From positions 623,459 to 687,458 of the forward strand of contig NMRA01000198.1 in the NCBI GenBank assembly GCA_002633005.1: DNA of 64,000 bases, read 5' to 3'. Numbering within the stretch: the stretch's first letter is position 1; every line of letters starts with the position of its first letter. The notes under the pieces are model-generated. The model saw nothing but the letters and a program-made list of their open reading frames with translations. It was not told where the DNA came from and searched no databases. This stretch comes from Phoronis australis. Taxonomy: Eukaryota; Animalia; Phoronida. The translations under genes and the position numbers were made by a program. This document shows positions 12,540 to 60,352 of this stretch, piece by piece.

Positions 12540-12544
12540 CTCAG

Positions 12545-13515: not shown

Positions 13516-13524
13516 TGACTGAAT

Positions 13525-13935: not shown

Positions 13936-13939
13936 CTAA

Positions 13940-14056
13940 GCCAAATTTCATCAAGATCATATGAAGGGTTCAGGAGATACAGCTGCAGACGCCAGACACC
14001 CAGACAGAGATGACCGCAAAATGCAACCACATATAAATATGTTGGCGCATAAAAAT
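13940..14056 (-). mobile_element. Helentron-associated (HINE/DINE-1-like) non-autonomous element, 5' fragment
   Basis: Minus strand reads TTTTTATGCGCCAACATAT..ATATGTGGTTGCA hairpin, then a GTCT-type microsatellite. The same end recurs near 23795, 25739 and 32928. Confidence 0.55.
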
Positions 14057-14253
14057 GACTTGATGTACAAACATCAACTCTTAGTTTAAAGCCATGACCA
14101 ACATCATCGGATAGCAGAAATTCTGAACTTGACAAGATAACAGAATATTGTAAATGCTATTATAATGTTAAATATTTTATGCTGGACTCGTATCTCTTAC
14201 ACTAACTAAATGCACCTTCTGTTATTCTAACTCTCAACAGCTTAGCACTTCAT

Positions 14254-14322
14254 ACACAGGCACACACACGGACGCACGCACACACACACACGCACGCACG
14301 CACACACACACACACACACACA
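14254..14322. repeat. (CA)n/(CACG)n compound microsatellite
   Basis: Direct reading: cacacacacggacgcacgcacacacacacacgcacgcacgcacacacacacacacacacacaca. Confidence 0.95.
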
Positions 14323-15327
14323 AACAGCACCAACTCATACACGATCTCACACCCCAATATCTGAAATTATGATGACCTGTTTCTAAGTCACCAGAACCAG
14401 TGAGCAACCTGGCTCCTAATTTGCATAAGTTTCAAACATTGCCAACAGGAATAATTGCAACCAGAATAATGTTGAAGCAGCATTAAAGATGCTATGCGTC
14501 ACTAAGTTGTGAATATGCAAATGAAGTGCTAGTTTACAAACAGCCCCAAGTTATCCGGTGTGCCGGAAACCATCCGAGAACAGCTTAGACTTACAGTCGC
14601 GTGAAAGTCTCATTTTGCGAAACTATTTTTTTGTAAATGAGTATGGCAATGTCATCGTTACCCTAATGGAACAAGGCGCAGTTTTTATTATTTATTCATT
14701 TCACTATCAAATAACAATTGCGTAATATTTGGAATTTCTAGGGTTTTCTGTATGTTTCCACTTATTTTTACGTGTATCAGTTGTGGTGTTTTCTTTAAAA
14801 CCGCAATTGATTTACAAACCGTTTCTTTTCCTGATTTTACTTGTACACAGTTATCCAGAAGTCACAAGGTGACGCTTGCTACACATTTAAATATTTAGTT
14901 TTAATGAGACATAGCATCTTTAAACCCGCGCTCTGTTTCAATTTAGGGCACTTGCTGTTATAAAATTGGTTTCATCTTGTTCCCCTCGGTTTTTACAAGT
15001 GACAATTCATAATTTCTTCAAATCAAGCTCACGTGACTGGAAATTTTAACAGTTTGTTTAAGAACTAGCAGTTCTTTGCACGACTAAATAATACTTCTCA
15101 TCTGAGTAAGGAAAAAGTCATGACCAAATTTATAAAGGTACGTGGCCTAAATCAAAACTTAGTTCCTTTGGCAGAACAAGTGTAAAGGTATTACCAGACA
15201 ATGGTAGTATGACTTGGATGAGACAATGTCATCGTTGTAATCCAGCAAAAAGCTCTCTGTTACCAGAACCTTGCTCACTTTTGCTTTTATCTTTGTCAAA
15301 CTTTACCTACGAGCACCATCAAGTATG

Positions 15328-18300
15328 TTATTCAGGACATGGCAGAACTTTCAAAATCCAGTCTTTCAAGGACAACACCGACTCCGTTTTCAGTTCATGG
15401 TAGCCTTTAAACTGGTGGAACTCCGTGTCAACACCCAAAGCCTTCATGTTTTGTGCAGTCTGTTCTCCCCAGTTGTACATCACCATGGGGTCTGATGTAT
15501 TGTGCGACACAAAGAGACGTGGCAGAGACGATTGCTTGGCCTCCCTCACAGCCTAGGCAACAACGTAATAGGTTACAGAACCCCCGCAATAACCAATCGA
15601 GTCTTTTCCAAAAAAAATTCCCTCAACATTAATGAAGAAATTTTTTACGTACAAGGCCAATGGGTGCACTAAAATGACAGAACGTCAAAATACAGATCGT
15701 AATCATTCCTTACAAAGGAGAGGTGGAATACACAGAGTGGTTTTTAGACAGCCAAGTCACTTCTTTCGGTTCTCTCAGCATAAACCAAGATCAAAATAAG
15801 GAATGTGCCCAGTGGGACAACAAATTTAACGTTTTTTTTTCAAAAGTGCCTTAAGCATTTACACTGAAACTAAAATTCTTCAGATTTAACAAAGTGTGAA
15901 AGCAGAAAAATAAACATAAAATGATGACAGTGCTCCTAATTAGAATCTTAAAACATCTAATGGAAGTTAAAGATTGATAACCTTGTTATTCATAGCATTG
16001 TCATTTCAGTTTCATAATAAAATAGTGGTTACATGATACAAACCTGATACACCAAGGAATTCTGCGCCAAAAAGCTTGACATTGCAAAACAGCCTGCTAT
16101 ATCTGGATGGTGGCGGTAAACAAAGTGTAATGCCATCGCTCCACCCATTGAAAACCCACCTGCAAGACAAAGGCATACTACAGGTGCCAATCAAATAACA
16201 TGATAAAGAAAGAGACAATGACATACACAGAAATATAAGTCACCAATACATTAAACGGAAAGCTTGTAATGACATGAAATTGAAAAAAAATATATAAAAT
16301 ACAAACAGAACAGATAATACATTAAAGCTCATTAATGACAAAATCCATTCAGGGCCAGCAAGGGTGTTGACACAATTGTATTCTAAAACAAAACAACAGC
16401 ACATTCCTTTACTGCAATAGGTGATCAACCAAATAACCATTGATTTCAAGTTGTTCAACCTACCAACGATAATATTCTTTTTAGCTATTCCCTGAGACAG
16501 TTCATAGTCAATCAAACCATTCAGCGTTCTTGCCATTGAGTCAATGTCAGCCACATCTTCAGGAACATTGGGCTTGACTTGAACCCGGTCGAACCATACT
16601 GTTTCTATTCTACCCCTGTGAGGAGTATAGGGCCTGAAACAGATTAGTATTTACTATCTACCATCTGAAAGATTATCCATCATTTTCATTTCATTAGGAA
16701 AGTAGGTAATTTCCCACCCATGCTTCAGAGAATTGCAAACCTGTCATGAAATGGCAATCAAACAGCAAGAGCTATAGAGTTAATGAGATACAGCCCGACA
16801 TGAAATGGACAAAATCATCACTATAGGGTGTCGCAGTAGTCACACCTGTCAAAAAACCAATGTCAGTCATGACATTCTTGTCAGGAATACATCTGCCATT
16901 TTTCATAATTCTTTTAGAAATTAGGAAACTACATAGTTTACTTACCTATGCGTAACATCGGCAATTTATTTTGGACTTTTGTTTTCTTGAAAAGTTCCTC
17001 CAACAGAGGTCGCATGTATGCATTAATGATTTTCAAGCCCACATGGGATGGTGGTAAAGATGATCGCTCCTAAGGAAACGAAAACATTGATCATCAGCAA
17101 GATGAGCAGTAACGTCTTAACACTGATGAACTTGAAAAACTAAACGCTTTGACATCTTAATTGATGTTTTTGTTATTAATTTAATGATCATTTTTCATAT
17201 GTCTTGATGAAATGTGTATGGAAACGCAGGACATGTGACCTCTGCGGAGAAAGCTTTTCAAGAAAGCAAAAACTCAAAATACATTGCCAACGTTCCGCGC
17301 AGTAAGTTTTGTCATTGCTGTTTATTTTTAACTCACTTCTCACCTCACGAGGTAATGAATAAACCATAGATTTGAAATCAGAAGAAACATCAAATATGTT
17401 TGGGCCGATTCCGATAAGAGTGGTTATGGGATTCTGAGACACAAATGCCTTCAACAGAACATACTTAAAGAACGGCTTCAATTTCAAGCACAACATTCAT
17501 TTCATGTCCTTATACGTTGACGGTCAACAGATACCTTCCAAACCACTTCAAGCAAAGTCTGACCTTGAGCTTATTTTCGGGTACATGAAAAAGTTAGCAA
17601 GACGAAGGTAATGACATTAATTGTGCAGATTATTCAAAGGGAAACACGCTATTTGCTTTTGATCTCTTCCTCAACCTCTCTGATGGGTATGATTTGAACA
17701 AACGACGAAACATGCGCATTGAGGTTCATTTTGACCAACCCTTGCCAAGTGCCATCAACACGCTCGTGTATGTCAAGTTTGAAAAAGTGATCGAAATTGA
17801 TCACTCCAGGAACGTTCTGTTCACCTTGAACAGCATGAATATGTTAGAGATTGAATCCACCTTTTCACAGGATCCTTTTGTAAGACCAGTATCAAAGACC
17901 AGCTCAAAGATGATGGCATGAAACATTATCCCAAGGGTCTACAGTCCCAGTAATAAACCTGGCATGCACTGGGTTGCCGTGTACCTGACGTACAACAAGT
18001 GTGGAGAATATTTTGATTCCTATAGCATTGTCCCCTTAATCACAGACATATATGCGAGTTTTGTGTTGCATGTTGAACACACATATAAAACCACTATTGG
18101 TGTCTGTGCAATAAAACCAGATAAACGTCACAAAATACTGTTCAAGTGACACTTTTTTTCTGTTTATTCCATCTGTTTGCTTTTAGAGCATGATGTAAAA
18201 AACGGGACTTGGAATGAACAATGGCGAAAAACGCGGAAATTTTTACGGCCCACAACATGCGCGCAGCCAGCCTTGAAAATGTAGGTGAGGACCTTTTGCC

Positions 18301-27002: not shown

Positions 27003-30000
27003 CTACACAGGAGAGGGCAGCACTTTCAATATCCATTCATTCAACGAGGACAAGCATTCTTTACTGAGTTCATGATCATCTTCACACTCAAGAAAGACAG
27101 TGTCCACTCCCAACTCTTTCATCTTCTTAGCCGTCTGCTCACCCCATTTGAAATCTACTAGAGAGTCAAATGTACCATGCGACATAAAGAGCTGTGGGAG
27201 GTAAGGATGATTTGTGTCTTCAAGAGCCTGTAGGAACAAGAAAAAGGTCATTAGTATGAGTTTATAATAAACCTTTCTGATAATGCAGTATTCCCAGTCT
27301 CAATTCAAGCATTCACTACACACCTGAAAGTGATAAAGTAACAATAAACCCATAACAACTTTCTTTCAATTCTTTGTTCTATAAAAAGATTAAGACATTA
27401 ATAGCATATGGCAGACAAAACTGTGATTGGAAGTTTAAAATGTTGTTTCCTTTGCAATAAACTCAATTTTGTAATTAACAGACTTCTATTGTTCAAGCAG
27501 CTTTACAAGAACAACTTCGACTAATTAACAATTTTGTTAATTGAGCATGGTAAGTAAATAATTGTGTGATTTGCATGGAAAACGAAGTGCATTGTTGGGA
27601 TGTTGGTGACGAGTTTGTGGAGAGAGGACTTGAGCAACAATTGAATGGCCTGATGTTATCTTGATTGACCAAGACGGAATATTTGGTGGCGACCAAAGAG
27701 ATGACATAATGGGAAGACATTCATACAAAGATTAAAAAAGACATAATGTCACACTACCTTGTATACTGCAGAATCTATAGCTAGAAAGCTTGACATTCCA
27801 AAACAGCCTGCTATACCTGGTTGGTAGCGATAAACATAGTGTAAAGCCATTCCTCCACCCATTGAATATCCCCCTGAAAAGGAATACCTGATTTTTGAAG
27901 ACAAAGATGAACGGACATCAGCTGCTGACTTCGTTGTCAGGGTTTATGGTTTTTTAAACAGCATCTGATCGGGGAGATCGCGAAAATTTATATCTCATGT
28001 GTGGAAAATATGTATGAAAAGTGCTATTCCACAACTATCTTGGTCAATATTGCGATACATCGGAAATTATTGTATCACCTTTCAGCCAATCAGAGGATAA
28101 AAGTATCAATGGCCACATAATAAAACATATTTATGCTACTGTGGGTTGAGGAAACAACACGATATTAATAAATACCCCTAAAAATAGAATGAATTGAATT
28201 GTGTCAGTTCAGTTCACTACACAGCGAATGATGCTAGTACTAAATAGGACAGGTCCCATAACCGGTTCATTGATATATGAGAAACTAACCAAGAAAAAAG
28301 TATCACAGACACACGGACGCTTTAACTAAAATCTGTGATGAAAGTTTGCAAAACTTAAAAACCTTAATTATTCCATTGAAGCTCCGTAGAGAATAAATCA
28401 CGCCATCTTCAGACACTGACCAACAATGATGTTCCTTTTGGGAATCCCCAGCAGTACTTCACTATTGACGATGTCATTGAGTACTTCCGCCACGGAAGCT
28501 ATGTCATCCAGACTTTCAGGAGCAGTGGGATCTAACCGGAGACGGTCAAACCAAACAGTATTCAGCTCACCATTGCTCATGGTATGGGGTCTGAAATACA
28601 GAGGTAACACATTTCAAGTGTGTTGACATGAACTGGTGAAACAGAGAACGGTATGTACTTGTCTAACCTTAAATTGCAATAAGAGCGAATACCTATGTTA
28701 TGAATGTAATATTCAACTCGCTACAATTTTCAAGACATTTTACAATTTGTTTAACATTGAGATCAATGATGCAGACAGTTATCACACGTGAAGAATATTG
28801 GAATTTGAGTTGAAGTGACTACCTTTGTTACCGACGGTCACATACATTTTTTCTAATCCATGAAACCATCAATTTGTAATACCTTGATCAAAGAAACATT
28901 TCATGCATGAATATTGTGCCTAATAGTAACACGAGGATGTTTTTATATCATATGTTTATGGTCACTGTTACTTCCACATTTACCGAGATCACACTCAGCC
29001 ATAGACTCATTTTGAGCTACAACAAATGAATTCATTTTTTAAAGGAGCTCATTTTTCCAGAGTTTCCAGATCTACACCCTGACCTTGTTTAGGCCGTTCT
29101 GAAGACAAAGTGGCAGGTAGGGCAACAATACAGGTTTGTTTGATATTTTGCGGTCATGTGTTTCCCTACGGCAACAACATTTATACAGTGTTGATAATAA
29201 AGGAGCAAATCTTGACACCCCCGACAATGGAAATGACCACTAAGTCGAAGTAATTACAAGATCTAAGACGGTTTTTACAAACAGAAAAATAACGTAAGCC
29301 ACATGAGTTTTCATGTGAAATTTGTAATGAGTTAATCCTGCGCCACAATTCGACACTTGGCCGTGGGCAGATGCAGCTCACAAAAGACTTTCAATAGGAT
29401 GTTTTTCAAGAGGTTGAGCTACAAAATTTAAAACAAATTACCAGTGAACTGAGAAAAGAGGAAGTTTCTGGTTAAAATACATATAGTTTCACACCTTCTT
29501 GATGACATCTCTATGGCAGGTTAGTCCCAGAATGTAGAGAGTACTTTTCCAATGTGAATTTTCTCCCTTCTCAATTTACCAACATAAGCATGAGCAACCA
29601 GGATGGAGCTAATCATTTGAAATTAGGATTCGTGGAATCCAATTTCAGAGGTCATGTGCCTGGTTCAACTTAAGGATTCCCCTTTTAAATTTCTGGTTTA
29701 AATTCTCATGTCTGTATGTGCACCCAACACCACTTTCAGACAATTAAGCCAGTTAAGGGTACAAGTAATTAACTAGAATGTTCACGATAGCATAACAAGA
29801 TTTATTTCACTCACTATTTGTATTTTAACACCTGAAATATACCTCTCTGGTGCTGTTGGATAAATTATCTTGATATGCTTGAACACAAGATTATGGCCAA
29901 GTGTACTTTTGATGTCTGAAATAAACTGCGGGCCAGTATTACCTAAAAGAAAGCAAGAAAATACAGACCTGACTCACTGAGACCATAATGGTTTAAAGGC

Positions 30001-41370: not shown

Positions 41371-44300
41371 ATGGCAAGTTCTAGTATGTCCACGGAATCC
41401 ATTCCTGCATCTGCAACATCGGGAAATGAAAGTGAACAAGTGTCTGATGATGAGACGGCTGGGTCTGAGGCCTCGGAGAATGTCGAACAAGAGTAAGTTA
41501 TGTTTTAAGACTCTGTCAAAGCAATAAAAGTTGACCGATCATGGAGTTTGAGATTTGCTGAAAAATGGCGTCCAATTCAGAATATTTTCTATCATCTGTT
41601 TAGGCACCATTGGTAATGATGTGGGCTTAGGTAATGGAATTAACAAGCTGAAGTTGCTTCTTAAAACATCATTTCTCAAACCTTTTGGTCTATTTACTCT
41701 AATCTCTAGCCTATTTTTTTGGCGCAATGTTTTGGTTGGTCTCAGTGGCTTAGTAGTGCAGAGTGCTGAATTGAAAACTAAAAGGTCCTACGTTCAAACC
41801 CCGTCCTGCACCAGGAAAAATACAATATAAGTGCATGAGGTTACCAGATATCCTGTGCTCATTCTTTTAAGAATGCTGTAACACCTGAAGATTGTTGGAG
41901 AAATTACTAATGTTTCCATGAAAATAGGATAGAGGTTGGTGTAAACAGACCTATAGATTTGCTGATAAGATCAGATAACAACCTGTAATAACTAAAATGC
42001 AATAACCCAGTTGACACACCCAAATATACAAAAGAAGACTGGTTGTGAATAACTTGCCTTAGCTTTACCACCAGCCTATTCATGGCTCAGTGCACATACT
42101 CCTGAAAGCAGAGGTTCTGTGTTGCATTCATGATGTGAGAGGCCAGTACCAGGTTGCATGAAACAGCCTCAAATAGGGACTCAATAGCGGATTTGCAGTG
42201 CAGACGAACTACGCATTGCGCATGTGCGAGTTACTTCCTTCGCGAAGGCTCATGGGATAGCTTGTGGTCAGGCATGTCTTGAGCAGGCTGGATAGTGTGT
42301 GCATTTGGATTGATTTGCAAACTAAAAACCATGTTTCATTTTTTTGCTTTATAATACCAAGCAAGTCCTCTCTCTCGTTTGTAAACACAGCGTAGCTATG
42401 ATCAGTGACCGAGTGACCGAGGGAACGACTGTCGTCATGTTCAGTATTGGGGCTATCGGCGTTGATTTCGAAATCTCCTCCGGTTTCAGACAAGTTGAGA
42501 GTTCTTGGGTTGCTTAACTTTTGTAGCTTTCGCCGTGGATATGCTAGAGACGTTAATTTTACGAGGAAACTCCGTCGGAATGTTGTTCTCATAAGTCTTT
42601 TTTCACCAGGAAAATGTTCGCTGCACACACGATGGCCCCTAGGCAATTACATCGCACTGGATGCCGCAGGCATTCAGGGGCGATAGTACATCCTCACAAA
42701 AAGTTACTCATTTCAAAATACAGCAAATAAAATCAAATGAACCATACATATAGGAACNNNNNNNNNNNNNNNNNNNNNNNNNNNNNNNNNNNNNNNNNNN
42801 NNNNNNNNNNNNNNNNNNNNNNNNNNNNNNNNNNNNNNNNNNNNNNTTTAAACAGTACACACCATGGAATTTTGCACATTTTGAATTACCGGTGGCCACA
42901 GACTAAATGTATGACGTAAAATTTAGCTAAACCCATGTTTATTTTGTGTAATTAGCTCGAAATTTTGATTTTTCTTTCAATTTTGCCAATTTTCACATTT
43001 CCCGCCATGTGACGTCATGGGTTGAACACAAGAGATCAGTGACCAGCATTGAACAATGGCGGAGAGCAGTGAATTTGAAAGCGACGACGATTATGAGCAA
43101 GAATTAAATAAATACTATGAAGAAACGTACGGGAATGGTGGCCAGGATGAGGAAATGGGGTTGCACGAAAGCGAGAACAAGTTTGATGTCCTTCCGGCTG
43201 CGTACTTTTCTACTTTGAGCCTTACGAACTGGATCCTCCCGCGAGAGAAGCGGCCTCGGGCTCGGCGAGTCAACCCAGTCATCCAACAGACGATCCTGAA
43301 TTAAGAGCCGATGTTTCTGAATGATAAATATTGTCCTTTATTGAACCAGGCCTTCATCGTAACATCTCCTGTGACTGGAGTTGAAACACGAGTCCTCAAA
43401 GTGGGCAAAACACAGAGTGGCCCCGGACCGAATCGCTTGGTCCACGATGAGGTCCCACACTCTCGTTAGGCGCACGAAGCGATGTCACTTCAGCGCAACT
43501 TTGGTGTCCTTCGGAACACCGAGATGTTCTCCGCCTGTCTGCTGTTGCTGCAGCCTCCGGCAACATATCTTTTGATCCCTCTACGAACCTTCTTTGCTTT
43601 CACTTCACTCTATACACTTTGTCTCTGATCCGAACAGTATGGCGAACGACTTGGGTTCAACCCATGACGTTGTACATAATTTTTTTTTTTTCAATTTTTG
43701 CGTGTTTCTTTATGAGCTGTGCACTAAAGGCACTGAAATCAAGTAAGATATAATAATAAAATTTATTTTGAGGTACTAGAGTCATGTTGTGTACACTTTA
43801 ACTGCAACCAAAAAAGTGGAGTTGTAATTCTTCGCCAAAGTCAACTTAATTCTCACAACTAAGCTTCATCAAAGATATGTATAGAAGTAAAAAGGACCAA
43901 TGATGAAAGTAAGCGTTTCTTAAATGGTAGTTTTAAGTGTAGATTGTATTTTTGATGAGGTGAAAACTCGAAATCGGTAACCCAAATCCGGTCACGGCCC
44001 ATTTAAAATACACTGAAGTAACGAAATCAATACAGAAAGCGAATGGAAGTATTGTAGCCCCTATAGGGCCAACCGAGGGGCTACGTGTTGCCTACTAGAT
44101 GGCCCCGCGTTGGTTTGAATGCACTAAATTTCCCCTTTCTCCCAGCTCTCCTAATGTTGTTTATCCATTTTCACGAAGTTCTTGGTTTGCAGGGAACACA
44201 TAAAAACTCTGATTTTTATCTCTCTTGTTGTTTTTGAAGCAGCCAGGAACACAACAAGTATATCCGCCGTAAGTTTTCTTCGCGCTCATACCGCGTATTA

Positions 44301-47300
44301 TGCTTGTTACTATGGCCGCTTTCAGAATCCTGACCACAGCACCCACAATGCACCATTTTAACCTAATTTCAATATGGCGTCGCTGCAAATCCGCTATTAA
44401 CTTCCCTAAATCTTTGCATATTTGCGTCTTTGTTTACTGACATGTTTAGTATGATCTCCTCTTTGACTAAAGACATTTTCTAATAATATAACTAAAAAGT
44501 GAGCCCTGAATTCAATGAAAATATATAGGGACTTAGTCCTTAAGTTAGGTGTGTTGCATGAAAAGATCGTTATACATTTTCGATAATATTTAGAATTCAA
44601 CGTCCAATTCACTGTTGATTTGTATCAGACCCAAAAATTGACGTAGTAATGAAACTAAAACACACAAGAAAGGACAATCAGTGTTTTCATAAGTCCACAA
44701 ATACGCAGTAGATTTAGGGAACTTAGTTGAGTCCCTATTTGGGACTGTTTCATGCAACCCGCCATAAGGCTCTAAAACCAAATTCTACACAAGGTGTACT
44801 TGACATGGAACATCTGACAGAGAACAGCTGACTGGGAAGAAGTATAAACATGTGTATAAACATGATTGACAAGGAGCAAATTGACACCACAGCAACCATT
44901 TCTTTCAAAGGTTTGAGAGGTAGAGCAAGTTGCACTGATCAGTTGCTCTAGTGTCAACTGTAGGTCTAAACACATACTGGGGCAAGGCAGATGTGATCAT
45001 CACTCCGAACATACACAGACTATCTTTGTACAATTGACTTCCATGCTGATCCAGTGTACCATAATGTCAAGTAGAGCAACTTGTGCCATGGCAAGCGTGT
45101 CTCATTAATAAAAGGCGCAAGGTCCGTGTGCTACATGATGAATGCTTCAGACACCCTTCCACACAACTTGTGATTAGCCTTTTAAATGTAGAGATACTAA
45201 TTAATTACTGGTGTTATGTATATGTTACAGTTCACAGTCTAGTCAGATTGTACTGTCTGGGGCAGGCAAGAAGTGCCCATTGCTCATCTTCAGAGCTGAT
45301 GTCGTGTACAAAAGAGTGGCAGAGGTGAAGGCTATTGGAGGTATGGGTTGACTGCGGGGAAATACTTCCATTGAGGAGGTGTATGGGACTTGTTGCTCAG
45401 AGGGGATACTTTTTGCACAGTTAGTTTCTCTATGGAATGGGGTGTTTACCGACAAATTATGTACAAATAGTGCCCCTTGCAAATTTTCGCTTTTTTCGAG
45501 TCCACTCTCTAAATTTATGGATATAATTCAAATTTTCCAGGTACACTCCTCTGTTGAAAATATTTAGTTGAGTACCCCTTTGTATTGACTGTTTGTTGTC
45601 TACCATAAAGGCTGGCTAAATGTAGAGTATCTAATGCTATTTCGTCATTTGTAGTGATTTCAGGGGTCATTTTTACACAACAACCTGAAATAATTATCTT
45701 ATGATTTAGATGTCTAACAGGGAAAATTAGTGTGACCCTGGCTTGATAATTAAGTTGGATCAGCTGGGATTTTTATTTTAGAGCTGTATTCATTTTCCGG
45801 ACAAAAATGCTTTGCTTGCCTTAATTAAAATGAAGCTCCACAATGCTAGTGTGCGTGACCGATGACAGTATTGCCATTGAAAATTTTTGCCGTGTAATTT
45901 GATGTTCTGTCTATCTAATATGTAACTGTGGCACATTTTTGTTTCAGAAAAGTACCACATGGCCTATAAACTAATCAAAACAGAGTGCAAGTTATTGCGA
46001 ACTATCCTAAACGGTCATGGCTTTCATGAAGTAAGTTACTCCAAGGTTTATGATCTTGATTTTTAAACTTTTTTCCCATTTCGTAATGGATGTCTCTGTT
46101 TACCTAGTGGAAATATGTTTCATGACTGGAAGTATGATGTGACAATTTTGTTTCATACTTTGTTAAAGGTGCTGGTGGTAGTTAAAGCTTGAATTTCAGT
46201 GTAACTCATTAAAGACTTATAACTTATAGCCCGTACAATGCCTCTTTCAAAAGCCATTGTTTTTGCTCATCTTTTGGAGTGGAACCCTTTGTTTTTGGTG
46301 TTTTAATATGGTTACACCATGTACCAAATGTCATTCATTGATGGCGTAAGAGGAAGGTGTACCACCGTTTGCTTGGTTTATTTGTGTTCGAGGTTTGCAG
46401 CTTGACCTAGTGCAGCAAAAGCACTCTTGATCCTAGATAAGCAATGATCATTTGGTTGTTATGATGTTGTTAATTTCCTGAGTAGGGTATAAAATTGTTG
46501 TTTGTCTCCCTTTGTATAGGCTCACCCCAACAGTAATGACTTCAACTTGATGTGGACGGGGTCACACATCAAACCATACGTTCTGAGGGCATTGACCGAG
46601 TTCCAGAAGGTCAACCACTTCCCAAGGTCATATGAGATCACACGAAAAGACCGCCTCTATAAAAACATTCAACGAATGCAACAGACTAAGGTGTGTGCTG
46701 CTGCTCTCGTATTTAAATTGTAGGAAGGTTTTTAGTGAAAATGCTAACATACATGGCTCAATGTTGCAGGATATTGTGGTGATGTGTTCATGGCTCTCAT
46801 TACCTGGTGGTTGTCCGGTAGTGCCTTCTATTCGACTTTGCTCCACACTGGAATTAAAGCGCTCTTTTTAAGCTTTTTCCACTTACGCATCTTGTTAAAA
46901 CAAAAAAATGACACACCCATTGTATTTGCTCATACTAAAAATGACCAACTATAGATCATTGCATTGTTAGCTTCTCAAGTTAAAAAAGCGGGAATGGGTC
47001 CATTTGATCAAAGGCTGTACACTCAGTGATAGCTAATATCATTATATTTTAAATTTAAATCGCGCACATATTTATGTCTCATGAAGTTGATCGTTGAATG
47101 TGAATACGGTCATTGGCTAATTTATGCCTTTTGGAATGTCTAGTTCTTTTGAACAGTACAAGATTATATTTTCAATGATTTGCCTATGGCTGTCATAGCT
47201 ATGACATGATTTCTACCTTTGGTATATGGTGCCCCAAATATCCTGGCCTATTTGAAGGCTAATTATCAGTTTGGTGACGAGATGTTATGCAAACTTTCGC

Positions 47301-50300
47301 GTGTACATTTTTTCTAGATGGGGTTAGAGTGGTCAGATGGATGTTGATTGATGCTTCTTTCAATCTTAATTTCAGGGTATGAAGCACTTTGACTTCATCC
47401 CACAAAGTTTTATCACTCCAGCTGAGTTTCAGGATTTTTGCTGTAAGTATTGACTTGGCCATGTACTAAGAGTGTACTGTGTGGTGTGGTGTTTGGCCTA
47501 CAAGGGATTTCTGAATCGGACTTTTTTCTGAGTAATTTGTGTTTTAGCTTCTACTACTGTTAGCAACCAAGTGAGAACTGGTTTTGGAGTTATGGTGCGA
47601 GCTACTGTTTTCAATGTTTTTCTCTTAGAACTTTGTCTGCTTATGGTTGAACAGTTCTAAAATGCAATTCGCTCATTTTTTGTTCGAGTTACTCCGAGCT
47701 GGTCCAACTCATTACTTCAAGAGTGCATCAATTCTTTGTAGCGGAGTTCATGCGAAACGGTGGAATGTGGATTGTAAAACCGTGCGCCATGGCTCGGGGG
47801 AAAGGCATATTCCTGATCAGTGATGTACATTTGATGTTACTGACTGCTTGCTTTACAAACACATGTTGTGAACTGACAGACATTGTAATCATGTGTCGTC
47901 ACTATCTGTTTATTTTCACGGCTGAATTTTTAGTGCTAAAGTTTCTATTCCTCCAAGGACTTTAGCCAGTTCCAGTCTTTGCAGTTCTAGCGTGTCAATA
48001 CCACTTAAACAGTCCTTGATGTTGTACTGTTTGGTTGTAACTTACTTGATCCTGGATGAGAAACACATCTATGTTGCGGGTGCGCAAGAAAAACTTTTAT
48101 GCCGCAGATGCGCGAATCTTTTAGCAATCCCTAATATCGTTATATGATGAATTTAACGTGACACACATGCCTGTCCCTGTTCAGACATGGTGTTTATGAA
48201 ACTAACTGCTTGTTAGTATTTTGGTGTATGCTAGTGTAACCTTCTACTTCTGTTAGCGTTCCTGTTATTCCCAGTTACATGGGTAGAATATGTTTGAGAA
48301 CTGAAAAATTGTGTCTGTGTCTGTACGCAGCAGAGCTCTTTGTTGAATGATTGTAGCATGACTGTATCGCAGCTGTACTCCTTGTGGAACTGAAGCTCAG
48401 TAGTGCTGAAAAGTGATGCATTTTACATAGATTTTAGTCTACTTAAGGGAATCTTTAACAGAAAAGATTGAGAAAATTATGAGGTTCTGTTTCGCTATGT
48501 AATTTATCAAGGTTTTTTAGGACCTTATTGACAAGTCTGTGCATGTGGTCAAATATCTACAAAATTTTAACTTTAATACTAAAAGTATGTATTTTTTGAA
48601 AGCAGACATCCTGTACAATTTGATTTCTTTTTGCTAAATGTGCCGTTGATTTTGTCACATTACTGTGTCTTTTATGAGTCCTATTACTGATAACATCTTA
48701 TGCTAAACAGAAACGTTTGAAAAACATTTTCCAGCAGCATTTTGGATGACAGTGCATAAAGCATAATGTCTGAAAGTTTCACATGAATCCAACCAGCCAT
48801 TTCTGAGATGTAATGTTCCAAAAATGGCCTAATTTGTGAAATTTTCTAGCGTACTATCTAATCTATGTGGAGGAAAGTTCGATTTCTTGGTTATCTAACA
48901 GCATCATCTTTGCAAAGCTTTTTTATAAAAAGCTTTTAAAAGAAGTGAGAGAGGCACAAGAAAACAACACCTTTCCTTTTAAATTTTAGCAGAACTTTGA
49001 ATATCTATCTAGTAATTACTCAGCTATTGGGGGACCACGATTTCTTACTTTCTGCAAAAAAATATCTGACGAAATTGAGCCCAGATCATTTACACTCGGT
49101 AAAATTATAAACTTGACTTTCCACTTTCTGCACTGAAGTAAATTGTAGGTCTGGCTCTGTAATACAGACAGAAATCCAGACTCAAGATGTCTCTTCGCTA
49201 AATCGCTCTACTTGGAATTAATGTTATTCTCAATTCTACTTTCCACATAATATTGCCAAAAAATTCAAGTGCGACATTGGATAAGGTTAACCCAGGCTCA
49301 AACTGGGGCTGAGTAGAGATTATGCCCGAGTTGGTGGTTGAATCTCTGGTCATGAGGTTTAGAAATTTGCGTCGTGCCTACAAGTTTTTATCCTGTACCT
49401 TTGTGGAGGGCTGGTTGTGATGGAGAGGTTGTGTAATGCTGTTCATGGTGTTATTGTTTTGTTGCATTTTGCGTTGCTAAGTTACATGTTATTCTTGTGT
49501 TGGTTGTAGCCGCTTTCCTTAAGGACAAAGGCCCGTGGATCGTGAAGCCTGTGGCTTCCTCTCGGGGAAGGGGCATATTTTTAGCTACGCATGTAAGTCT
49601 GCCTGCTGCTGTCAGTCAATAATGAAAAAGGCGGAGTTTCACTCCTTTGTTTGCCAATCAACAAGAAGAAAAAATGATTTCCAATCTAGCACCAAGCCAT
49701 CCAGAGTGTACACATGTCAAACTGTCCAGAGCATTTAATACAAAAGATTTCATATCAGTGCATGTCAGTAGCTGATATGGGAGTGAGTGATTCTCAAACC
49801 GAAAAAACTTGCGGTGGCAATTAACATGCATGGTTTGCATGCTTTGAATGGTGGCTTTTGTCTTCGTATATGTTTCATACGACGCGTGTTTTACCTTACA
49901 AGTTTTTTGTTTTATGGTTGGAACTAATAATCTTATAGTTAGGTTTCAATTATAAGGAATAACTAATATGCTTAAAATTGATAATTAACAATGGTTAATT
50001 GATTGAACAATATTGTGATCAGCTTGCTTGTATTTTCCATGATTTATTCCCTACTTTGTGTCGCACACCCTTCCAACTAATTGATCTTTTTCACTACAGC
50101 CCGATCAAGTGCCATTGGATGAAACCTTTATTGTGGCAAAGTACGTCAACAACCCACTTACCATCGATGGTATGTAGTTGTCTTCTCTGTTAGCATCAGG
50201 CATTTGGTCATATTATGTAGTGCACGAAATTGTTGTCTAGCTAATGTGTTCAGTGAATATTTAGAAAGTAAGGATGTTGAACGAAAATGATTCTGTCGGA

Positions 50301-53300
50301 AATTGTGAGTGCATATCGTTAATGAAAATCTTCAAAAGTTATTTTGTTAATTTGACTGTACAAAAATTTGATGTAGGGCTCTGGAATCATTTTTACATTT
50401 TTCATTCCAAGGTGACGTGTATGCTGTACTGCAATAAAGTTATAAATGCATTTTCTGTGTTTTAGGTTTCAAGTTTGATCTACGCCTGTATGTAGCTGTG
50501 ACTTCCTATGATCCACTGTGTATATACTTGTATGAGGAGGGTTTGACTAGGTATGCTAGTTTCTAGTGTCCAGTCTTTCATTTCACTTTTCTAGGTTAAT
50601 TGAAACAAAAGCATGGAGATCTATTGTGCAAGTTTTTTGAAGTGTAAAAATGAATTAAAAATCATTCTGGCTTTCACGGAACTCTGTAACTATCTGTTGG
50701 CTGAGAACATAAGATTCTTCAGTGACTCGGGAGATAAATCAAGTGAAATCAATAAACAGTCCTTGTTATTAGTTGTTTATGTAATGAAAAATACCGTTTT
50801 CTGAAAGCATTTTGGGCCAGAGAATTGTTAATCATTGGATGAATGAATTTTCTCTGGGTGCTGGCGTTCCATATTTCACGTAGAGTTAGTAACAGATATT
50901 GACTAAATCTTGTGAACACCTCAGATTTGCGACAGCGAAGTATGACCGAAACCCACGACATATGAAGAACCAGTGCATGCATCTGACCAACTACAGCGTC
51001 AATAAACGCTCAGATAGTTTTGTGTCGTGAGCTGGCATTTTTGTTCGGAGTTCCTCACATGTGCTATGTCATATTAGTTCTGTAAATATTCTAAACATTC
51101 ATTGTCTGCACCAAATTCTTAATTGGGAAATGGATGTTTCTTAATATTACAATGATTCAGTCTTGGTCACGTGTCATAAACTACTGAGCAGATGCAAATG
51201 TTTAGAGAACTAGTATTATTACATAGCGAGGTTAAATTAGAGATTTGAGTTTTATTTAATTCCTAACAGCTTTTTTCAGTTGTTGAAAAATAAAAAAAAT
51301 TTTAAGCCCTTCCTTGAAATGGTTTTTGTTGTTTTTGATGTATTGGGCTACTCAGATAGTTCCAGCGCTACTTTAGCTACAGAAAATGTGATTTAATCGC
51401 TGAAATGTAGGCTGGTCAAAAACTGTGCAACTAGTGTGAGAACGCAGAACAAAGAACAAATTGTTTAAAGTAGTTGTCTTTAAATAGGATTGAACAGAAC
51501 ACTGTAAAAGGTTTTTGGTGGTGATGTAGACAGATATTTGCCAATGAGCCTAACTGACCGTTTATCTGCCCAGTCATTGTTGTTCAAAATATATGATAGC
51601 AACTAATTTTTTTGTGTTAATATTCCTAGGCAGGCTTTAAAATCAGTGGTGAAAGTAGCGGAGGAATAATTTATCATTACCCTATCACCAAATGTCTTCC
51701 AATGAGGTCCTGTAAATTGCTACCTTGTTTCTTATGAGTGACTTGGACGTATGAAAGATGAAAATTCCGTAAGCTCGTTGGTTTTACGGCAATTTCCTTT
51801 TAGTCCTTGCTTGAAAGTTGTGTTGGTCATCTGAAAAAATACCGTGAACTTTTTATTAGGAATTTCGCTTAGACTGAATGTGGTGGCTTTGTGATACTCC
51901 ATTTCTGTACAGTAGGTAAAAAATATTAGGTTAGACAATCCCAGGTTTATAACAGTGTCTTCTATTTTGTCACCATGTCTCCTGTAGAAAGTTGGTAAAC
52001 TACACTAACCTTCATGGAATGAATTTTTATAGCTAGTGCTGTTACGTTGTATTGAAATAATGATTATTACCTTTCGGTGGCATAGTTTTTCTCGAGAGTC
52101 TAGCTTTCGAACTCATCCTCCCAGTGCCCTGACAAAGAGCCCAAAATGGGCTCAAAAACTAAGCGCTCGAGAAAAACTAGCCTGGAGAAAGGTTATAATT
52201 TCAATACACTAACCTTGTTTTGTTTTGTTCCATTGATTTCGTTTTCATAACTCAACATAATTAACCTTGTAGGTTTGCTACTCAGAAGTTTGAGAAGGGT
52301 AGTGCACGCAATATCAAGAACCACATGATGCATTTAACTAACTATAGTGTGAATAAGAAAAGTGCTGATTTTGTACAGTAAGTTCAAATACATGGAGACA
52401 AGTGTAATGAGCAGTATACTGCAGGTTCTGTTATTTTAGTCAAGAAATGGCCGTCGATCAGTTTTCAGCAGGGATGTTGTTTCCTTATTTGAAGTTTCAG
52501 TAATTACAGAACTATCGCCTAATCTATTGATGTTGATCATTCATGAAATAGCACAATTTTACATTTTACTTCTGTGTACTATATTAATTACTCTCATATC
52601 ATTTTTAAATTAAAGAACTTGTTGATTCAACTTTTATCACTTGTTGCAATTTGAAGTTTGTAAAATACACTAAATTTTTTAAAATGACCATTCTTTGTCC
52701 AGGCATACCAGATGACCAAACTATGATTAAAATGTAACGGAATTGCAAAATTGGGCAATAGTCACATATGTGGTCCCCAGATTTATAGAACCAGTTTGAT
52801 GTTCCTGATTCAGTTGAGAAAACTGGTTTTGAAGTGCAAACCCTGTTTCCCAAAAATGTTTTGGTAACATTTCTGATGCTCTCAATTTTCAGAAATGATG
52901 ACCCTAATGTAGAAGATTATGGCAATAAATGGTCTCTCGGTGCAATGTTACGATACTTGAGGTCAGAAGGTCATGACACAACAGGTAACTAACGAAAACT
53001 TATTAACATTTCCACTTCATTTCCGTAATAATGTAATTATAGACAAATTCAATTTGATAACTTAAGATATAGGTCTCCTGTTTTTATGGAAGTAAGCTGC
53101 ATTTTTCTATTGATTTTGGTTATCAAGTTTTCTTTTGTATGGAAATAACATGATGTGGAAGTGTAATAGGATTTAGTGTTAAACATTCGATGAGTGTTGT
53201 GTAACTGTCTTATTTACTTTGAGACTCCAGTTGCAGTTCCCTGGAGCGGTCATCTTGTAGAGTAAGGTAGGGGGTGCAGTTAGGCTTCTCAATCCGAGGC

Positions 53301-56300
53301 GATATTTGTACCTGGCCGAAAAGGATAAATGTGACCCATGTTTTTACCAAGTGCTAAAATTGTACCCATTACTGAAAGAGGTCTTAAAACATGACCAATA
53401 TTTACATCTCATCTGGAGAAAGCCACAAGATTATGTAATGCCTTTGTGGGAGCTGTCTGATTTCAGTTAAATGAAGGTTCTTAAGAATGTGGTGTAATGG
53501 CTTACTTATCATGTTTCAGCATTGATGATGAGGATTGAAGATGTCTTGACGAAGACAATTATCTGCGCTGAGTTACCCATAGCAACAGCCTGTAAAATGT
53601 TCATGCCACACAAAGGAAACTGTTTTGGTAAGAAAACAGCACTATAAAAAGCCCAAGGCGACTCCATGATCAAAAGCGCCCCCTGTTGGTCTCCAGGTGA
53701 TACAAGCGGATAGTTGTACTCTTGCAAGTCATGAAAGTCAAAGTATGATGTTTCTACAAATCATGGTGTACTGAAGGTTTTTGATAACACCGAAGTTTCT
53801 TATTTGATGGCTTTCAAACGTCTTGCGTATTTTGTGTTGCGTGAGAGTCGGACTGAACCTGCATCAGATGCAGTGCAAATAATTGTGTAGCTGACAGCCT
53901 TTATGGATGGATGAACTGTGATGCATGTAGCTTATGTTTAAATATGTGGTATTGAATACTAAGTCATTCTTTTGGTATTAACATCTATGTGCCGTCTTGC
54001 AGAGGTGTACGGGTTTGACATACTGATAGACAGTAACATGCGGCCATGGATTTTGGAAGTGAATCTCTCTCCATCTTTGGCCTGGTAAGTTATGCTGCAT
54101 TCCAATCAGAATCTCTAGACATATAGATTATTACAAGACGAACTTGTTGTTTCCAGTGAGATTGGAGAAATTATCACCTGGGGGTTGGTTGTCCGGAGGT
54201 TGATAAATTCTCCAAATCAAACAAGGGGTCTAGACACAAGAAATTATTGCCAAGGATATATGGTAATGTGTCTACCTATCCCATATATTGAGCAACAGTC
54301 TATTAATCCCCAAAAAGTTAAATGAAAACATTCGAGTTTTGTGAACTTTACTATTAATAAATTAAGTGCCCACATGCACAGTGTGGGGACGTGGTTCAAA
54401 AGTAGTGGTGGAATTTTTGAAGTTTTGGAAAAGTCCAGATAAAAATTTGTCGAGTTGAATCTCTCTGAATGTGGAGCGTTTTGAGTTTGACTGCTGCTGT
54501 AGTGATGAAGTATATTGATATCAAGATTTCCTTTTTGGGGATTGTGATTGAGTGAGACCTTTCCATCTTATTTTGAAGAACATTTCAGATAGTTATTAAT
54601 TCTAGCTTTGTAGTGTTTCTGAAGCAGAGTAATTATGTATGTGCAATAGGCTGTTTGAATTCTCTGATCAAGTTGTGTTACTGTTCATTTATAGCTCTAA
54701 ACAGTAAATCAAAGTTGCTGTTAATGTTGCGGATAACGTTGTGGAAAATTATGCATTGAAATGTTGCGACCCTGCTTTGGACCAGCGTGGCCAATTAAGT
54801 GTCTCACATTCATTTGTTTTCTTCTCTCCCATCGCGAGTCCTGACACTAGCAGCGCGGCATTGTACTACGAACATTCTAATCATATGAGGGACTCACCAC
54901 CAACATTGTAGTAGTCAAAGTAGGACTGAATAAAGCATGAATCAAGATTGTGTGATCATCACAGTATCAGTTACCTTGTCATTGTCGTTTTCCAGCGATG
55001 CCCCACTGGATCTGAAGATAAAGTCCCACATGCTGTCAGATTTGTTCTCTTTAACTGGTATGCTGTTACTTTCATTTAGTCTAAAATTAATTCATTTTCT
55101 AAGTGTGGAAACATTGCTTCCCTTACGTTGGTTGGTGTTTTCTGAAAAGAATGCAGTTCATGTCAGTGTGGCAAAGCAGTTTTTTTCTAGATCTTTCTTA
55201 GAAAAGTTACATCAGTTAGAAAACGTGTTATGATATGCGGTTTTTGAAAACGTTTCAGGTTTTCCTTGTCATGATCCAATGATGCGGCCCGCCAAAACCC
55301 CTAATAAAGTGCCTGACCCCAGGCTGACCTCGTCTAAACAGGTAAACGTTATGCGTGACCTACTTCGTGTTTTTGTGGAAAATCGCTGAAAAGTACTGGG
55401 ATTGTGTTGTATTTCTAAAGTTATTGACTGTTTTCTTGAAGTACTGGGTTTTTGTGTTGTTATGTTATTAATGCTGATGGAATTATCCAACATTTCGTCC
55501 TTTCACTCATAATATTTTGACTTTGATCAGAAAGGGGTCTGATTTGTAAAGCTGCTTCGAATTTTTGCCGGTTGAACTTCTCTGGAATCTAGTAGGGTTT
55601 GCTTTGTGTCCCAACTTCAAAACTAGTCTTCTGCAATTTAGCTTGTACCCCGTTGGTCATACATAACTGTCTCATTTTCAGCGATCCTCATCTCTTGTTG
55701 TCTCACTCTTTCATTCTTTTCTGTGTTTTTGTATCATTTAGTCCAACCGTCAGCGTCCCTTCTCAGCGCCATCAAATTCTGGGGTTTGTACGCCATACAA
55801 GCACAGTGTCAGCAATTTAACAAATCACTACAATTTGTGAATTTACTGACTGACTGTATAGCAATGTTTCGGGGTCACATGACTGTACTTTCATAGATAA
55901 GTGTACAATATTTGTGTATTTATTCACAAATGTTATTGATTTCTTGTTTATTTAAAAAAAAACAACCATGCATGACTTGCGATCCGGCCCATATTTTACT
56001 TTAAACACTTTTTTCGGAAAACAATGATTATCCCTTTTGTTCAACGGCAAAGATTAACTGTAGCATTTGTTGTTTTAGAGCATATTGTCATGTGACTTCC
56101 TCTTTGCTGCCCAGCAGTCTTCTGTATTCGGATATGCTTTTATTTCTTGGTCATCCATTTTACATGCCGCACTGTATCACGCTAACCATGTAACCTTCCT
56201 TAGTCTGGTCTAATGTAGCATTTAGCGTAACCTGTGTTCGGATTGTGGTAAACCTTGCACATGTAAAAAAACTACAGCCACGAAATATCGGTGAATACAA

Positions 56301-58076
56301 TATACATAACTGCAAAGTATTAGTTTGATGTGTTAATTGCCTTTAAATGGATTACGGTTGAATTATTCACTCCAATCAGTCATTGTATTCTGTTGAGTGA
56401 GAAGTGCATTTTGTAAATCACTTAATTTGTTATTCAAGTGACTAACTTCACAGACAAATTTGATGCACACCTTAACCCTCCATAAAATGTTTGGTGCACA
56501 AGAACTTATTACACGTACAATAATTTTTCACTATTGATGAGACTGTTGATGGGTCTCTGCCAAATGTAACCATGAATAATTGCAGACTCAAAATTTGCGT
56601 TCTCATGTGTTTCGAAATCCTGGAAATATTTCACGAAAAAGTGAAAGTGATTAATTACGCTAACGGTTGTGTCCCTAATTACTCGTGCTGGCTGCTGGAC
56701 TACCGGTATTTTTTTGTTGCTCCTATTGGCAGGCATTGATGAAAAAACAGATAGAGCAAAACTATATATGGGTCAACAGCAGTGGTTTTATGATAAGATC
56801 TGAATGTTAATTGAGTAAATAAGCTGTGGTAACTGGTGGAGAATAAAATTTCCCGGTATTAGTCCAGGCAAATTTGGTGGAATTCAGAGTACTGTATCAA
56901 TTGTGTCCCAATGCAAAAATTCTTATTATTAAAATTTTAACGGTGAAAGTAACAAGACTACCTCGTCCACTAAATTTCACATAGGAATGGAACATGCGTG
57001 ACTTTCATGTAAAGTGTCGGGACCAGCAGTAAACGGAAATTAAGTGTTTACAAAAACAATCACAACTTTGAAGTACATTTTATCTGTCCAAGCTTGGCAG
57101 CTGGGAATAAAAGTTGTTCTAGTTGTTCACGCGGTGGTTGGTATTGGGGAGAACTCAACAATTTTGTGTGCCTCAAGGAAAGCTTGTGTGCACTACAAGC
57201 ATTGTGAATGATATGGCCCCGTTGTTGTAGAAATGCACACCAATTTGAAGGTTGTTCAACATGTAGTTATCCCTCATTTACCTGGTCCCTTTATCATTAC
57301 TGAATTTAATTTAACTACTTCCTGTTTGCTACAATTGTTGTGAAATCAGTCTAACACCTTGTTATTCTTCGTCAAAGCAGTGCTCTTGACATGTTTGCAT
57401 ATTTTCAATCGTTTATCCAGTTATAGTATAATGGTTCCTAGTCAACATTTCTTTTCCCCCTGACACACATTGCTTAGAATGATGTCTAAATCTCAGAATT
57501 GGTAATGAACTTTAGTAAAATTTAGCACATCTTCTGATCATTGCTTTTCATTGCCGTTGTTATCATCATTTTCAGCGCGCCTCTCGACCCTCGTCTGCCT
57601 CAGCACCCAAGAAGTTGGGTAAGATTGACGTGACGGGTCTATCTGGTGAAGAAGTAAGGATGATACGTCGTGTCAAGGAAGAGAACAGACGTCGGGGGGG
57701 CTTTGTGCGCATCTTTCCTACCAGGGATTCATGGGAGCTATATGGGTAAGATGGATATCAAGTTGCCCTGTGTTAGAATGCTCAGTCGGTCACGATTTTA
57801 AGCGGGCGTGTCACAATGTTAAATTCATAACTGATGCACTTTGAGATTTTAAAGTATTATCATGCTCATCGGATCTTGAATCTTTACCAAAGTTATGCAA
57901 CAAGGTGGCCATTTTGTTCTACTTTTTCACTAAGTATGTAGACCTGCAAGTGGTTTATATTCATGGTGCTACATCGAACACAAAGACTGTTTCAATTTTG
58001 CTCTTCCTTTCAGCTCTTTCATGCAGTTCACCACCAACAATAACCTTCTCCTCCACCAAAGGCTCTTTCCAGAGAA
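41371..58076 (+). CDS. TTLL5: Tubulin polyglutamylase TTLL5-like, 5' portion (gene continues past the last confident exon)
   Basis: Exons 41371-41492, 45231-45340, 45948-46030, 46520-46690, 47376-47442, [47742-47824 or 49510-49592], 50100-50169, 50466-50550, [50925-51026 or 52273-52377], 52893-52984, 53520-53627, 54003-54084, 54996-55057, 55259-55341, (55742-55783 possible), 57576-57745, 58014-58076. All GT-AG and in frame. Motifs [81 protein letters not shown]...[34 protein letters not shown]. Confidence 0.93.
42758..42846. other. Assembly gap (run of N)
   Basis: Run of n characters. Confidence 0.99.
42852..43797. mobile_element. Kolobok-like non-autonomous derivative with convergent acidic ORF (+) and THAP fragment (-)
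   Basis: TTAA flanks, imperfect TIR (ACAGTACACACCATG vs AGTGTACACAACATG), internal inverted ACGTCATGGGTTGAAC near 43015 and 43655. Plus strand [16 protein letters not shown]; minus strand [26 protein letters not shown]. Confidence 0.6.
47742..47824 (+). CDS. TTLL5: TTLL5 alternative exon 6a (83 nt): [28 protein letters not shown]
   Basis: tttgtag|...|gtacat. Same length and phases as exon 6b, open frame, homologous WIVKP...RG.GIFL motif. Confidence 0.8.
49510..49592 (+). CDS. TTLL5: TTLL5 alternative exon 6b (83 nt): [28 protein letters not shown]
   Basis: ttgtag|...|gtaagt. Closest to the vertebrate TTLL5 sequence as I recall it. Confidence 0.9.
50925..51026 (+). CDS. TTLL5: TTLL5 alternative exon 9a (102 nt): [35 protein letters not shown]
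   Basis: cctcag|...|gtgagc. Phase 2/2, intact [10 protein letters not shown] motif. Confidence 0.85.
52045..52210 (+). mobile_element. Penelope-like inverted-repeat remnant with degenerate hammerhead core
   Basis: Arms TAGTTTTTCTCGAG/CTCGAGAAAAACTA enclose CTGACAAAG-AGCCC-AAAAT-GGGCT-CAAAAAC. Confidence 0.45.
52273..52377 (+). CDS. TTLL5: TTLL5 alternative exon 9b (105 nt): [36 protein letters not shown]
   Basis: ttgtag|...|gtaagt. Phase 2/2, intact [10 protein letters not shown] motif. Confidence 0.85.
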
Positions 58077-58706
58077 GTAAGTACAGCATTGTTTAGTTGT
58101 CCTTAATTAACACAGGGGTTGTGGTTCAGAAGCTGTTCTTTGTCAGTGTGTTTCATTTGTTGTCTGTTGTTACGGTCTGTAAACATGAGTCACGTGAAAT
58201 CCTAGATATATGTGTAACGGTTTTTTTGAATGAATGTTCAACATTGTTGTGTCAGTGAAATGTTCCAACTGTGTTCAGAGTTTCAAGCTGTATTTTTGAC
58301 GACTTTTGGCTCAGAATGCAGAAGTTCTGATTGTCCTTTAATATTCTGTATGTTGTTGCTTCACCCGATTACAGGGTTTCTATATCCGTAGCTGGACTTA
58401 TTCCCAGCCTACAGCTGTATCCTCCACCAATCATTAGTGCACATGCCTGCCTTCTAGGCACTGAAGTGACTATCTTATAAGAGATATTTGTCTTAACAAT
58501 TAAGTTGCACACGTCTTCTTGTGTTTGAGTGTTCACTTAATGCCAGACATTTGTTGTAGCCACAGTGGGGACAAAACGGTGGTTGTCAACCCCAGACCCA
58601 CCCCTAAGTGAGTCTAGATGTAGTGCCCTTAGCATGGACTTTGGGTTTGCATGCTGATATACCCACTAACTGACTGTACACTTAAACAAGGTTGCATGGT
58701 AGCATT

Positions 58707-60193: not shown

Positions 60194-60352
60194 AATTTGG
60201 AGTACACAGTGGTTACTGTAATTTGGAGTACACAGTGGTTACTGTAATTTGGAGTACACAGTGGTTACTGTAATTTGGAGTACACAGTGGTTACTGTAAT
60301 TTGGAGTACACAGTGGTTACTGTAATTTGGAGTACACAGTGGTTACTGTAAT
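60194..60352. repeat. Perfect tandem minisatellite, 26-bp unit x6, at the right end of a small MITE (~60053-60215)
   Basis: AATTTGGAGTACACAGTGGTTACTGT starts at 60194, 60220, 60246, 60272, 60298, 60324. The unit overlaps the arm complementary to ACTGTGTAATCCTATTTTACATTTGATGACC at ~60057. Confidence 0.95.

Follow-up and report, generated by a model that had tools for sequence, protein, structure and literature searches.

The tubulin glutamylase gene TTLL5 of the phoronid Phoronis australis carries two tandemly duplicated exons, 6 and 9, each of which encodes a lid of the active site. The gene lies on contig NMRA01000198.1 of assembly GCA_002633005.1; the stretch analysed, referred to here as the window, comprises 64,000 nucleotides (nt; positions 623,459 to 687,458 of the forward strand), and all coordinates are those of the window. 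This double duplication is real, old and expressed, and the derived loop, encoded by exon 6a, is the form seen in RNA. The exon anatomy, the saturated synonymous divergence between copies, the retention of catalytic residues and five splice joints are established. The favoured reading goes further. RNA includes exons 6a, 9a and 9b, the cell likely selects a single copy from each pair, and the predicted outcome is a set of chain-starting glutamylases with different rates or different preferences for particular tubulin tails or sites; taken as a whole, this is probable.

Anatomy of the duplicated exons

The duplicated exons and their immediate neighbours are as follows (residue numbers are those of TTLL6).

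47376 to 47442, plus strand: exon 5, from reading frame and RNA reads
47742 to 47824, plus strand: exon 6a, the derived copy of the beta5-beta6 loop exon; 83 nt, joints 5-6a and 6a-7
49510 to 49592, plus strand: exon 6b, the ancestral copy of the beta5-beta6 loop exon; 83 nt, no joint called
50100 to 50169, plus strand: exon 7, single copy here, from frame, reads and profile scan
50466 to 50550, plus strand: exon 8; its last two bases open the Arg241 codon, which 9a and 9b both complete as Arg
50925 to 51026, plus strand: exon 9a, of canonical length, loop 261-265 intact; 102 nt, joints 8-9a and 9a-10
52273 to 52377, plus strand: exon 9b, one residue longer; 105 nt, joint 8-9b
52893 to 52984, plus strand: exon 10, from frame and reads

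A preliminary description of this DNA had given the coordinates, lengths (83, 83, 102 and 105 nt), GT-AG sites, phases and open frames of the four copies, and all of these are exactly as it had them. Each copy is bounded by AG and GT, and each of the four combinations that take one copy per pair leaves the frame open through exons 4 to 13. The frameshift that it had predicted for inclusion of both exon 6 copies, or of neither, was computed and does occur, with the first stops at 49543 and 50120. Inclusion of both exon 9 copies, or of neither, keeps the frame; hence the frame does not enforce the exclusivity of 9a and 9b.

Both pairs are tandem homologous exons of matching phase and near-equal length, as is characteristic of homologous mutually exclusive exons. 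Exons 6a and 6b are identical at 44 of 83 nt and 14 of 27 residues, exons 9a and 9b at 64 of 105 aligned nt. In a tblastn search of the exon peptides against the window, each matches its partner only (E 1.8e-6 to 5.6e-9), the next-best match for any of the four having E 0.32 or worse. A profile scan of 45000-53900 gives the partner exons scores of 76 and 85, whereas the background does not exceed 21; no further copies of exons 5 to 9 were found in this interval.

Use of the exons in RNA

Reads were aligned to positions 46400-53700 only. They come from three raw-read runs (X1, X2 and X3) and one contig set (X4) with the same species label; less than one fifth of each raw run was sampled, and depth is low. 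A joint was called only with at least three reads from two starts. The exon reads show the strandedness expected of plus-strand RNA. Five joints involve duplicated exons: 5-6a (seven reads in X1, two in X2), 6a-7 (four and three), 8-9a (one and five), 9a-10 (four and five) and 8-9b (five and two). Among constitutive joints, 4-5 has three reads in X1 and one in X2, 7-8 has four, two and, in X3, one, and 10-11 has two in X1 and 15 in X2. The X4 contigs contribute repeat pieces only, and X3 about one read pair on exons.

Exons 6a and 9a are therefore spliced to both flanking exons and 9b to its upstream neighbour, while 6b has no called joint. The splice-junction check that the preliminary description had proposed yields both joints for 6a and 9a, 8-9b for 9b and, at this low depth, none for 6b; a lack of junction reads for 6a, which it had named as speaking against its proposal, is not what is found, as both 6a joints occur in X1 and X2. 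At this depth, neither co-inclusion joints (6a-6b, 9a-9b) nor skipping joints (5-7, 8-10) were called. Because X2 uses both exon 9 copies with zero depth on 6b, 6a-9a and 6a-9b are both likely to exist as products. The difference between samples in the use of 9a and 9b (1:5 versus 5:2) is non-significant (Fisher p 0.10). The donor of 6a matches the consensus at five of nine bases and that of 6b at eight of nine; that 6a is spliced despite its weaker donor suggests active regulation of its use. On the favoured reading, 6b would still be used in a tissue or stage outside those sampled.

The reads differ from the window at seven exonic sites, six of them synonymous, including the three in 6a, 9a and 9b. 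At 47794, 50145, 50485, 51012, 52279 and 53608, every covering X1 or X2 read has the difference (five synonymous, one Val to Ile); the sampled animals therefore differ from the assembled one in haplotype or population. In the three raw-read runs, two short intronic repeat fragments, 48749-48824 and 52787-52850, attract many partly fitting foreign reads, which lie on both strands.

The reads also bear on whether the tandem copies are an assembly artefact, with two haplotypes or paralogues merged in tandem. The window does contain two runs of N, both upstream of exon 2, but likeness between the copies is no more than 53 to 61%, each flanking exon occurs once, and one exon 8 is joined to both 9a and 9b in the reads. 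This explanation is largely refuted and has next to no probability left.

Age, ancestry and constraint

The sequences support the view that both exon pairs arose by old tandem duplication and have been kept under constraint. Synonymous sites are saturated, the proportion of synonymous differences (pS) being 0.875 for the exon 6 pair and 0.827 for the exon 9 pair; the nonsynonymous proportion (pN) is well below this, at 0.348 and 0.262. These values compare copies within one genome, with synonymous divergence (dS) saturated and one 9b codon set aside. Within this single genome, the low pN relative to pS and the retention of invariant columns indicate purifying selection on the copies. The saturated sites, together with catalytic residues that are intact in every exon choice, agree with the strong DNA divergence and conserved catalytic motifs noted in the preliminary description.

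For exon 6, 11 columns are invariant among 76 distinct TTLL5 segments; 6b keeps all 11 and 6a eight. This set had been chosen by the canonical loop motif and was hence checked in two further ways. In 67 distinct cores anchored outside the loop, the three columns changed in 6a are invariant in 67 of 67. Of 401 fetched cores, 400 carry the loop V/I-ASSRGR and none a 6a-type loop; the single exception is presumably a TTLL4-type paralogue (clusters of both names, TTLL5 and TTLL4, exist in the Atlas). Exon 6b is up to 25/27 identical to orthologues. Since 6b keeps all invariant loop columns and 6a alters three, 6b is, on this comparison, the ancestral copy and 6a the derived one. An origin of 6a by capture from a TTLL1/9 gene is less favoured: the boundaries of 6a are exactly those of 6b, which points to duplication in place.

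Relatives of 6a were sought in three ways. A word-based search gave one weak match among three candidates. Of 414 stretches put forward by a metagenome scan, one was confirmed as a locus; it encodes a remotely related TTLL (45%) without a 6a-type loop. Against a library of 1.84 billion representatives, a 6a query that included 13 intron-derived residues gave 27 matches, three of them unrelated repeat proteins and 24 TTLL-like, with no 6a orthologue among the 27.

For exon 9, 12 columns are invariant among 87 distinct segments, and both 9a and 9b keep 12 of 12. Their differences flank the invariant motif, at sites that are variable among orthologues or, in a few cases, otherwise fixed. The extra residue of 9b is found otherwise in one of 369 segments, from the bryozoan Watersipora subatra (P0223); this may reflect shared descent or convergence. 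The Watersipora genome might conceal a 9a-type exon copy.

Weighing exon choice against its alternatives

Several observations weigh against a regulated choice between functional copies. Joints 5-6b, 6b-7 and 9b-10 were not called in the aligned interval; at low depth this is weak evidence, because calling needs three reads from two starts. Read numbers are small, at 1 to 15 per joint and run, and four X1 reads run unspliced through the 9b donor. No 6a-type loop turned up among the 401 cores, in the representative library or in the metagenome scan. Long-range intron pairing is not above that of shuffled sequences, 6 to 35 of 40 shuffles reaching the observed score in six comparisons. Finally, in a neutral simulation at d 0.05, 6b stays intact in 1514 of 5000 copies, 9a in 956 and 9b in 998. 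At d 0.25 the corresponding numbers are 16, 0 and 3 of 5000; therefore only recent silencing stays possible.

Recent silencing is part of an alternative in which 6a took over and 6b is a relic, while 9a and 9b have the same function and have drifted apart, each at its own variable positions. This would account for the lack of a 6b joint in four runs and for 6b depth of zero in X2, X3 and X4; equally, some ancestral residues are kept by 9a and others by 9b, and all differences between the two lie outside invariant columns. On the other side, 6b keeps all its invariant columns, its close identity to the best orthologue and its strong donor despite saturated synonymous divergence. Its depth in X1 is 0.61 and 0.26 in its two bins, which could stem from a few spliced reads or from unspliced RNA; the second value amounts to about 63 bases, or 3 x 21, 21 being the number of exon bases present in that bin, and so fits spliced 6b reads without proving them. 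Overall, replacement and neutral sharing are unlikely.

A very unlikely alternative is that 6a or 9b yields a poorly active enzyme or a transcript that is not completed; exon choice would then control how much TTLL5 activity there is and not its specificity. The altered invariant positions of 6a would suit this, as would the immediate stop that is reached by read-through of the 9b donor, which the four unspliced X1 reads cross while no 9b-10 joint is called. Yet X1 and X2 contain intron reads all along the interval, as unspliced RNA would give, and X2 has no reads past the 9b donor. In X3, a depth of 74-77 bases on 9b, with none at 52279 or 52395, fits one read spliced from 9b to exon 10, although this is arithmetic and not a called joint. 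Moreover, 9b keeps all 12 invariant columns, which would be needless in a non-coding role.

Catalytic loops and the class of the enzyme

In TTLL6, two loops cradle adenosine triphosphate (ATP), and the beta5-beta6 loop shifts by up to 5.7 Å upon substrate binding; the triple change C179A/Q180R/H362I produces an engineered initiase (Mahalingan et al., 10.1101/2020.06.07.139295, in the part of that study available). Alignment with TTLL6 via the Owenia protein places the first of these loops in exon 6 and the second in exon 9, so that the two pairs cover both ATP-cradling loops and do lie in active-site motifs, as had been proposed. Equivalents of TTLL6 K174, R241, T263, N264, Y265 and S266 are present in every exon choice. 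Arg180 occurs in both 6a and 6b, in line with the earlier claim that both keep the initiase-type Arg. Exon 6a keeps Lys174 and has Ala179, the initiase-type residue of the engineered enzyme. Exon 12, common to all forms, has Leu and no His at position 362.

All forms thus combine Arg at 180 with the absence of His at 362, as initiating glutamylases do, and neither 6a nor 6b has the Gln at 180 of the elongating enzymes (TTLL1, 6, 9, 11 and 13). Because of Arg180 in both copies, Ala179 in 6a and Leu362 in the shared exon, all splice forms are predicted to be initiases. What 6a does change are the otherwise invariant positions 178, 179 and 182, and also 176. By rewriting three such positions in a mobile loop, 6a would alter rate or site preference; this functional difference is predicted from loop position only, in that the loop moves and 6a alters it. 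Homologous exon swaps mostly retain the fold and change specificity, as far as the accessible part of one survey indicates (PMC7954323). Tuning of rate or substrate by exon choice appears likely, and a switch between starting and extending chains unlikely on known determinants.

The latter possibility has in its favour the resemblance of 6a to TTLL1-type sequences, which the preliminary description had pointed out. Of the 24 TTLL-like library matches, 17 have Gln-type, TTLL1/9-like loops, one example of which groups with the TTLL1 and TTLL9 clusters. Most of these resemble 6a at 15 to 17 of 27 residues, whereas the 76 TTLL5 segments average 13.2 and reach 16 at most, and in most of them Lys at 182 accompanies Gln at 180. 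If the 6a loop had moved towards the TTLL1/9 elongase type, splicing would turn short side chains into long ones. However, the comparison is circular, because the matches were selected by their likeness to 6a, and the single best segment score belongs to an Arg-type, TTLL5-like sequence (P0405). Exon 6a has two of the three TTLL6-to-initiase changes, keeping Arg180 and gaining Ala179; the third position, Leu here, is encoded by an exon common to all forms. In addition, R182I and S367H, added to the engineered TTLL6 initiase, brought no further gain in initiation (10.1101/2020.06.07.139295, same part). The resemblance appears real but modest. The change of chain-length class that had been suggested is not supported, and a true chain-length switch is quite unlikely.

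In two genomic fragments, P0412 and P0420, the exon 6 segment is TTLL5-like and has Gln180 and Lys182; in some lineages, TTLL5 itself may have turned towards the elongase type.

A more far-reaching proposal treats the gene as a dial for the tubulin code. Both active-site lids of TTLL5 would be exchangeable, and 6a would be a hybrid loop (TTLL1/9-like frame, initiase Arg) with a new product pattern, such as starting as well as extending chains or switching tubulin tail. On this proposal the exon 9 pair may predate the divergence from bryozoans, and exon swapping, reached in Owenia with another exon, would be recurrent in ciliated lophotrochozoans. This can be put forward only tentatively and is rather improbable.

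How exclusivity might be maintained

If one copy of each pair is picked, as the favoured reading has it, the two pairs would rely on different means. Transcripts with both exon 6 copies, or with neither, would be removed by nonsense-mediated decay, whereas exclusivity of 9a and 9b would need splice-site competition or RNA structure. Steric exclusion via a distant branch point was considered and rejected: AG-free zones span 16 to 79 nt, and the introns between the copies are 1685 and 1246 nt long. One structural element lies upstream of 9b.

52062 to 52200, plus strand: long hairpin upstream of exon 9b, from an inverted-repeat scan

The hairpin has a z of -6.7 (0 of 200 shuffles), with the reservation that, as the longest of 63 inverted repeats, it was picked. 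It ends just before the branch-point-like word of 9b at 52209-52213, and a second copy was not found in the window. It may be a small transposon, and a role in the use of 9b is a candidate.

Comparison with other genes

Other TTLL5 proteins share the initiase-type Arg180; the window gene differs from them by its two duplicated core exons. In 25 genus-level groups with at least two sequences, the core was compared among the members listed (at most 15 per cluster, e.g. 15 of 144 for the main Mytilus cluster). Among these, an exon-sized core swap occurs in one of 25 groups, Owenia; the other groups differ at 0 to 2 residues, an absence that is no proof, as annotation can miss such exons. With one group in 25, the device is likely to be rare in the TTLL5 core, a second lineage having probably reached it with another exon. 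In Owenia fusiformis (P0012 versus P0134 and P0135), all 12 differences between the 1293-residue proteins fall in residues 207-226 of the same domain. The swapped segment corresponds to exon 7, not 6 or 9, and is known from annotated proteins only; it is likely to represent an independent exclusive exon pair in the same catalytic domain. A further unusual relative is P0167 of Vespa mandarinia (1701 residues), with three TTL-type EVN motifs (394, 974 and 1527); it may be a triple-domain protein or a merged model.

Known homologous mutually exclusive exons, such as those of PKM (PMC7954323, in part; PMC9741552), have the same features of shared length class and phase, old duplication and variable residues at a functional site. 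In contrast to these, the window gene has two independent pairs in one catalytic domain. The supplements of PMC8373072, PMC7954323 and PMC9741552, which are possibly partial lists, contain no TTLL entry; the PKM control was found in the last. The coq-2 exon switch of helminths likewise concerns an invertebrate enzyme with an alternative exon tied to substrate choice (PMC7434440, as far as its available text goes). There the functional switch is demonstrated, whereas here the case is one of sequence, and the known specificity residues stay in the same class. Differential splicing of TTLL5 has been described in a cichlid, with no mention of such exons in the available portion of the article (PMC13646608). 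In the open literature searched, no report of duplicated or mutually exclusive exons in TTLL5 was found, in keeping with the statement of the preliminary description that it knew of none for TTLL5.

Gene identity and surroundings

The gene encodes a TTLL5 tubulin glutamylase of the TTL family (PF03133), with an ATP-grasp core nearer to TTLL5 than to other TTLL paralogues. An exon 4 query matches 1846 proteins; among the best 120, the top matches are TTLL5 of Lingula, Lineus, sharks and Owenia, and none of these 120 is identical to the query. That the top matches carry the name TTLL5 bears out the identification given at the outset. Exons 3-11 show 75 to 81% identity with annelid, nemertean, brachiopod and bryozoan TTLL5. 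When exons 3-11 are placed in a tree together with 27 selected homologues, the gene falls within lophotrochozoans (support 88/89, not starred) and outside the mollusc clade, a placement that is likely; Lingula is nearest, at 81%. This tree does not resolve the place of the gene inside lophotrochozoans and shows no grouping with Watersipora. The remaining exons are:

41371 to 41492, plus strand: TTLL5 coding exon 1, from ATG to a GT donor, with an acidic N-terminal stretch; open frame and donor
45231 to 45340, plus strand: exon 2, AG/GT and open frame; like the N-terminal segment of Lingula and Owenia
45948 to 46030, plus strand: exon 3, from splice sites and frame
46520 to 46690, plus strand: exon 4; best matches named TTLL5, joint 4-5 in reads
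53520 to 53627, plus strand: exon 11, from frame; joint 10-11 in reads
54003 to 54084, plus strand: exon 12, Leu at the position of TTLL6 His362; frame and alignment
54996 to 55057, plus strand: exon 13, end of the catalytic core; open frame

By eye, 57576-57746 and 58014-58077 are probable further TTLL5 exons beyond the catalytic core. An intronic tandem array at 60200-60352 has about five copies of a unit of about 27 bases. Upstream of TTLL5, frames on the minus strand at 16240-16650 and 27003-27299 resemble, by eye, what we take to be exons of a lysophospholipase-like gene, and 778-17921 contains decayed transposon-like frames (integrase-, piggyBac-, Harbinger-, tyrosine recombinase- and reverse-transcriptase-like, also by eye).

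Implications

Variety in the tubulin code is usually attributed to separate TTLL genes. The TTLL5 of the window would provide another route, via exon choice within one enzyme. The case concerns one species, and the known initiase residues are unchanged. Within this scope it amounts to a natural experiment: an expressed TTLL5 has a phosphate-binding loop altered at three positions that are fixed from corals to fish, and the same gene contains, in 6b, the ancestral control exon. Swapping a segment of 27 residues would probe positions 176, 178, 179 and 182 for their effects on rate, site choice and chain length.

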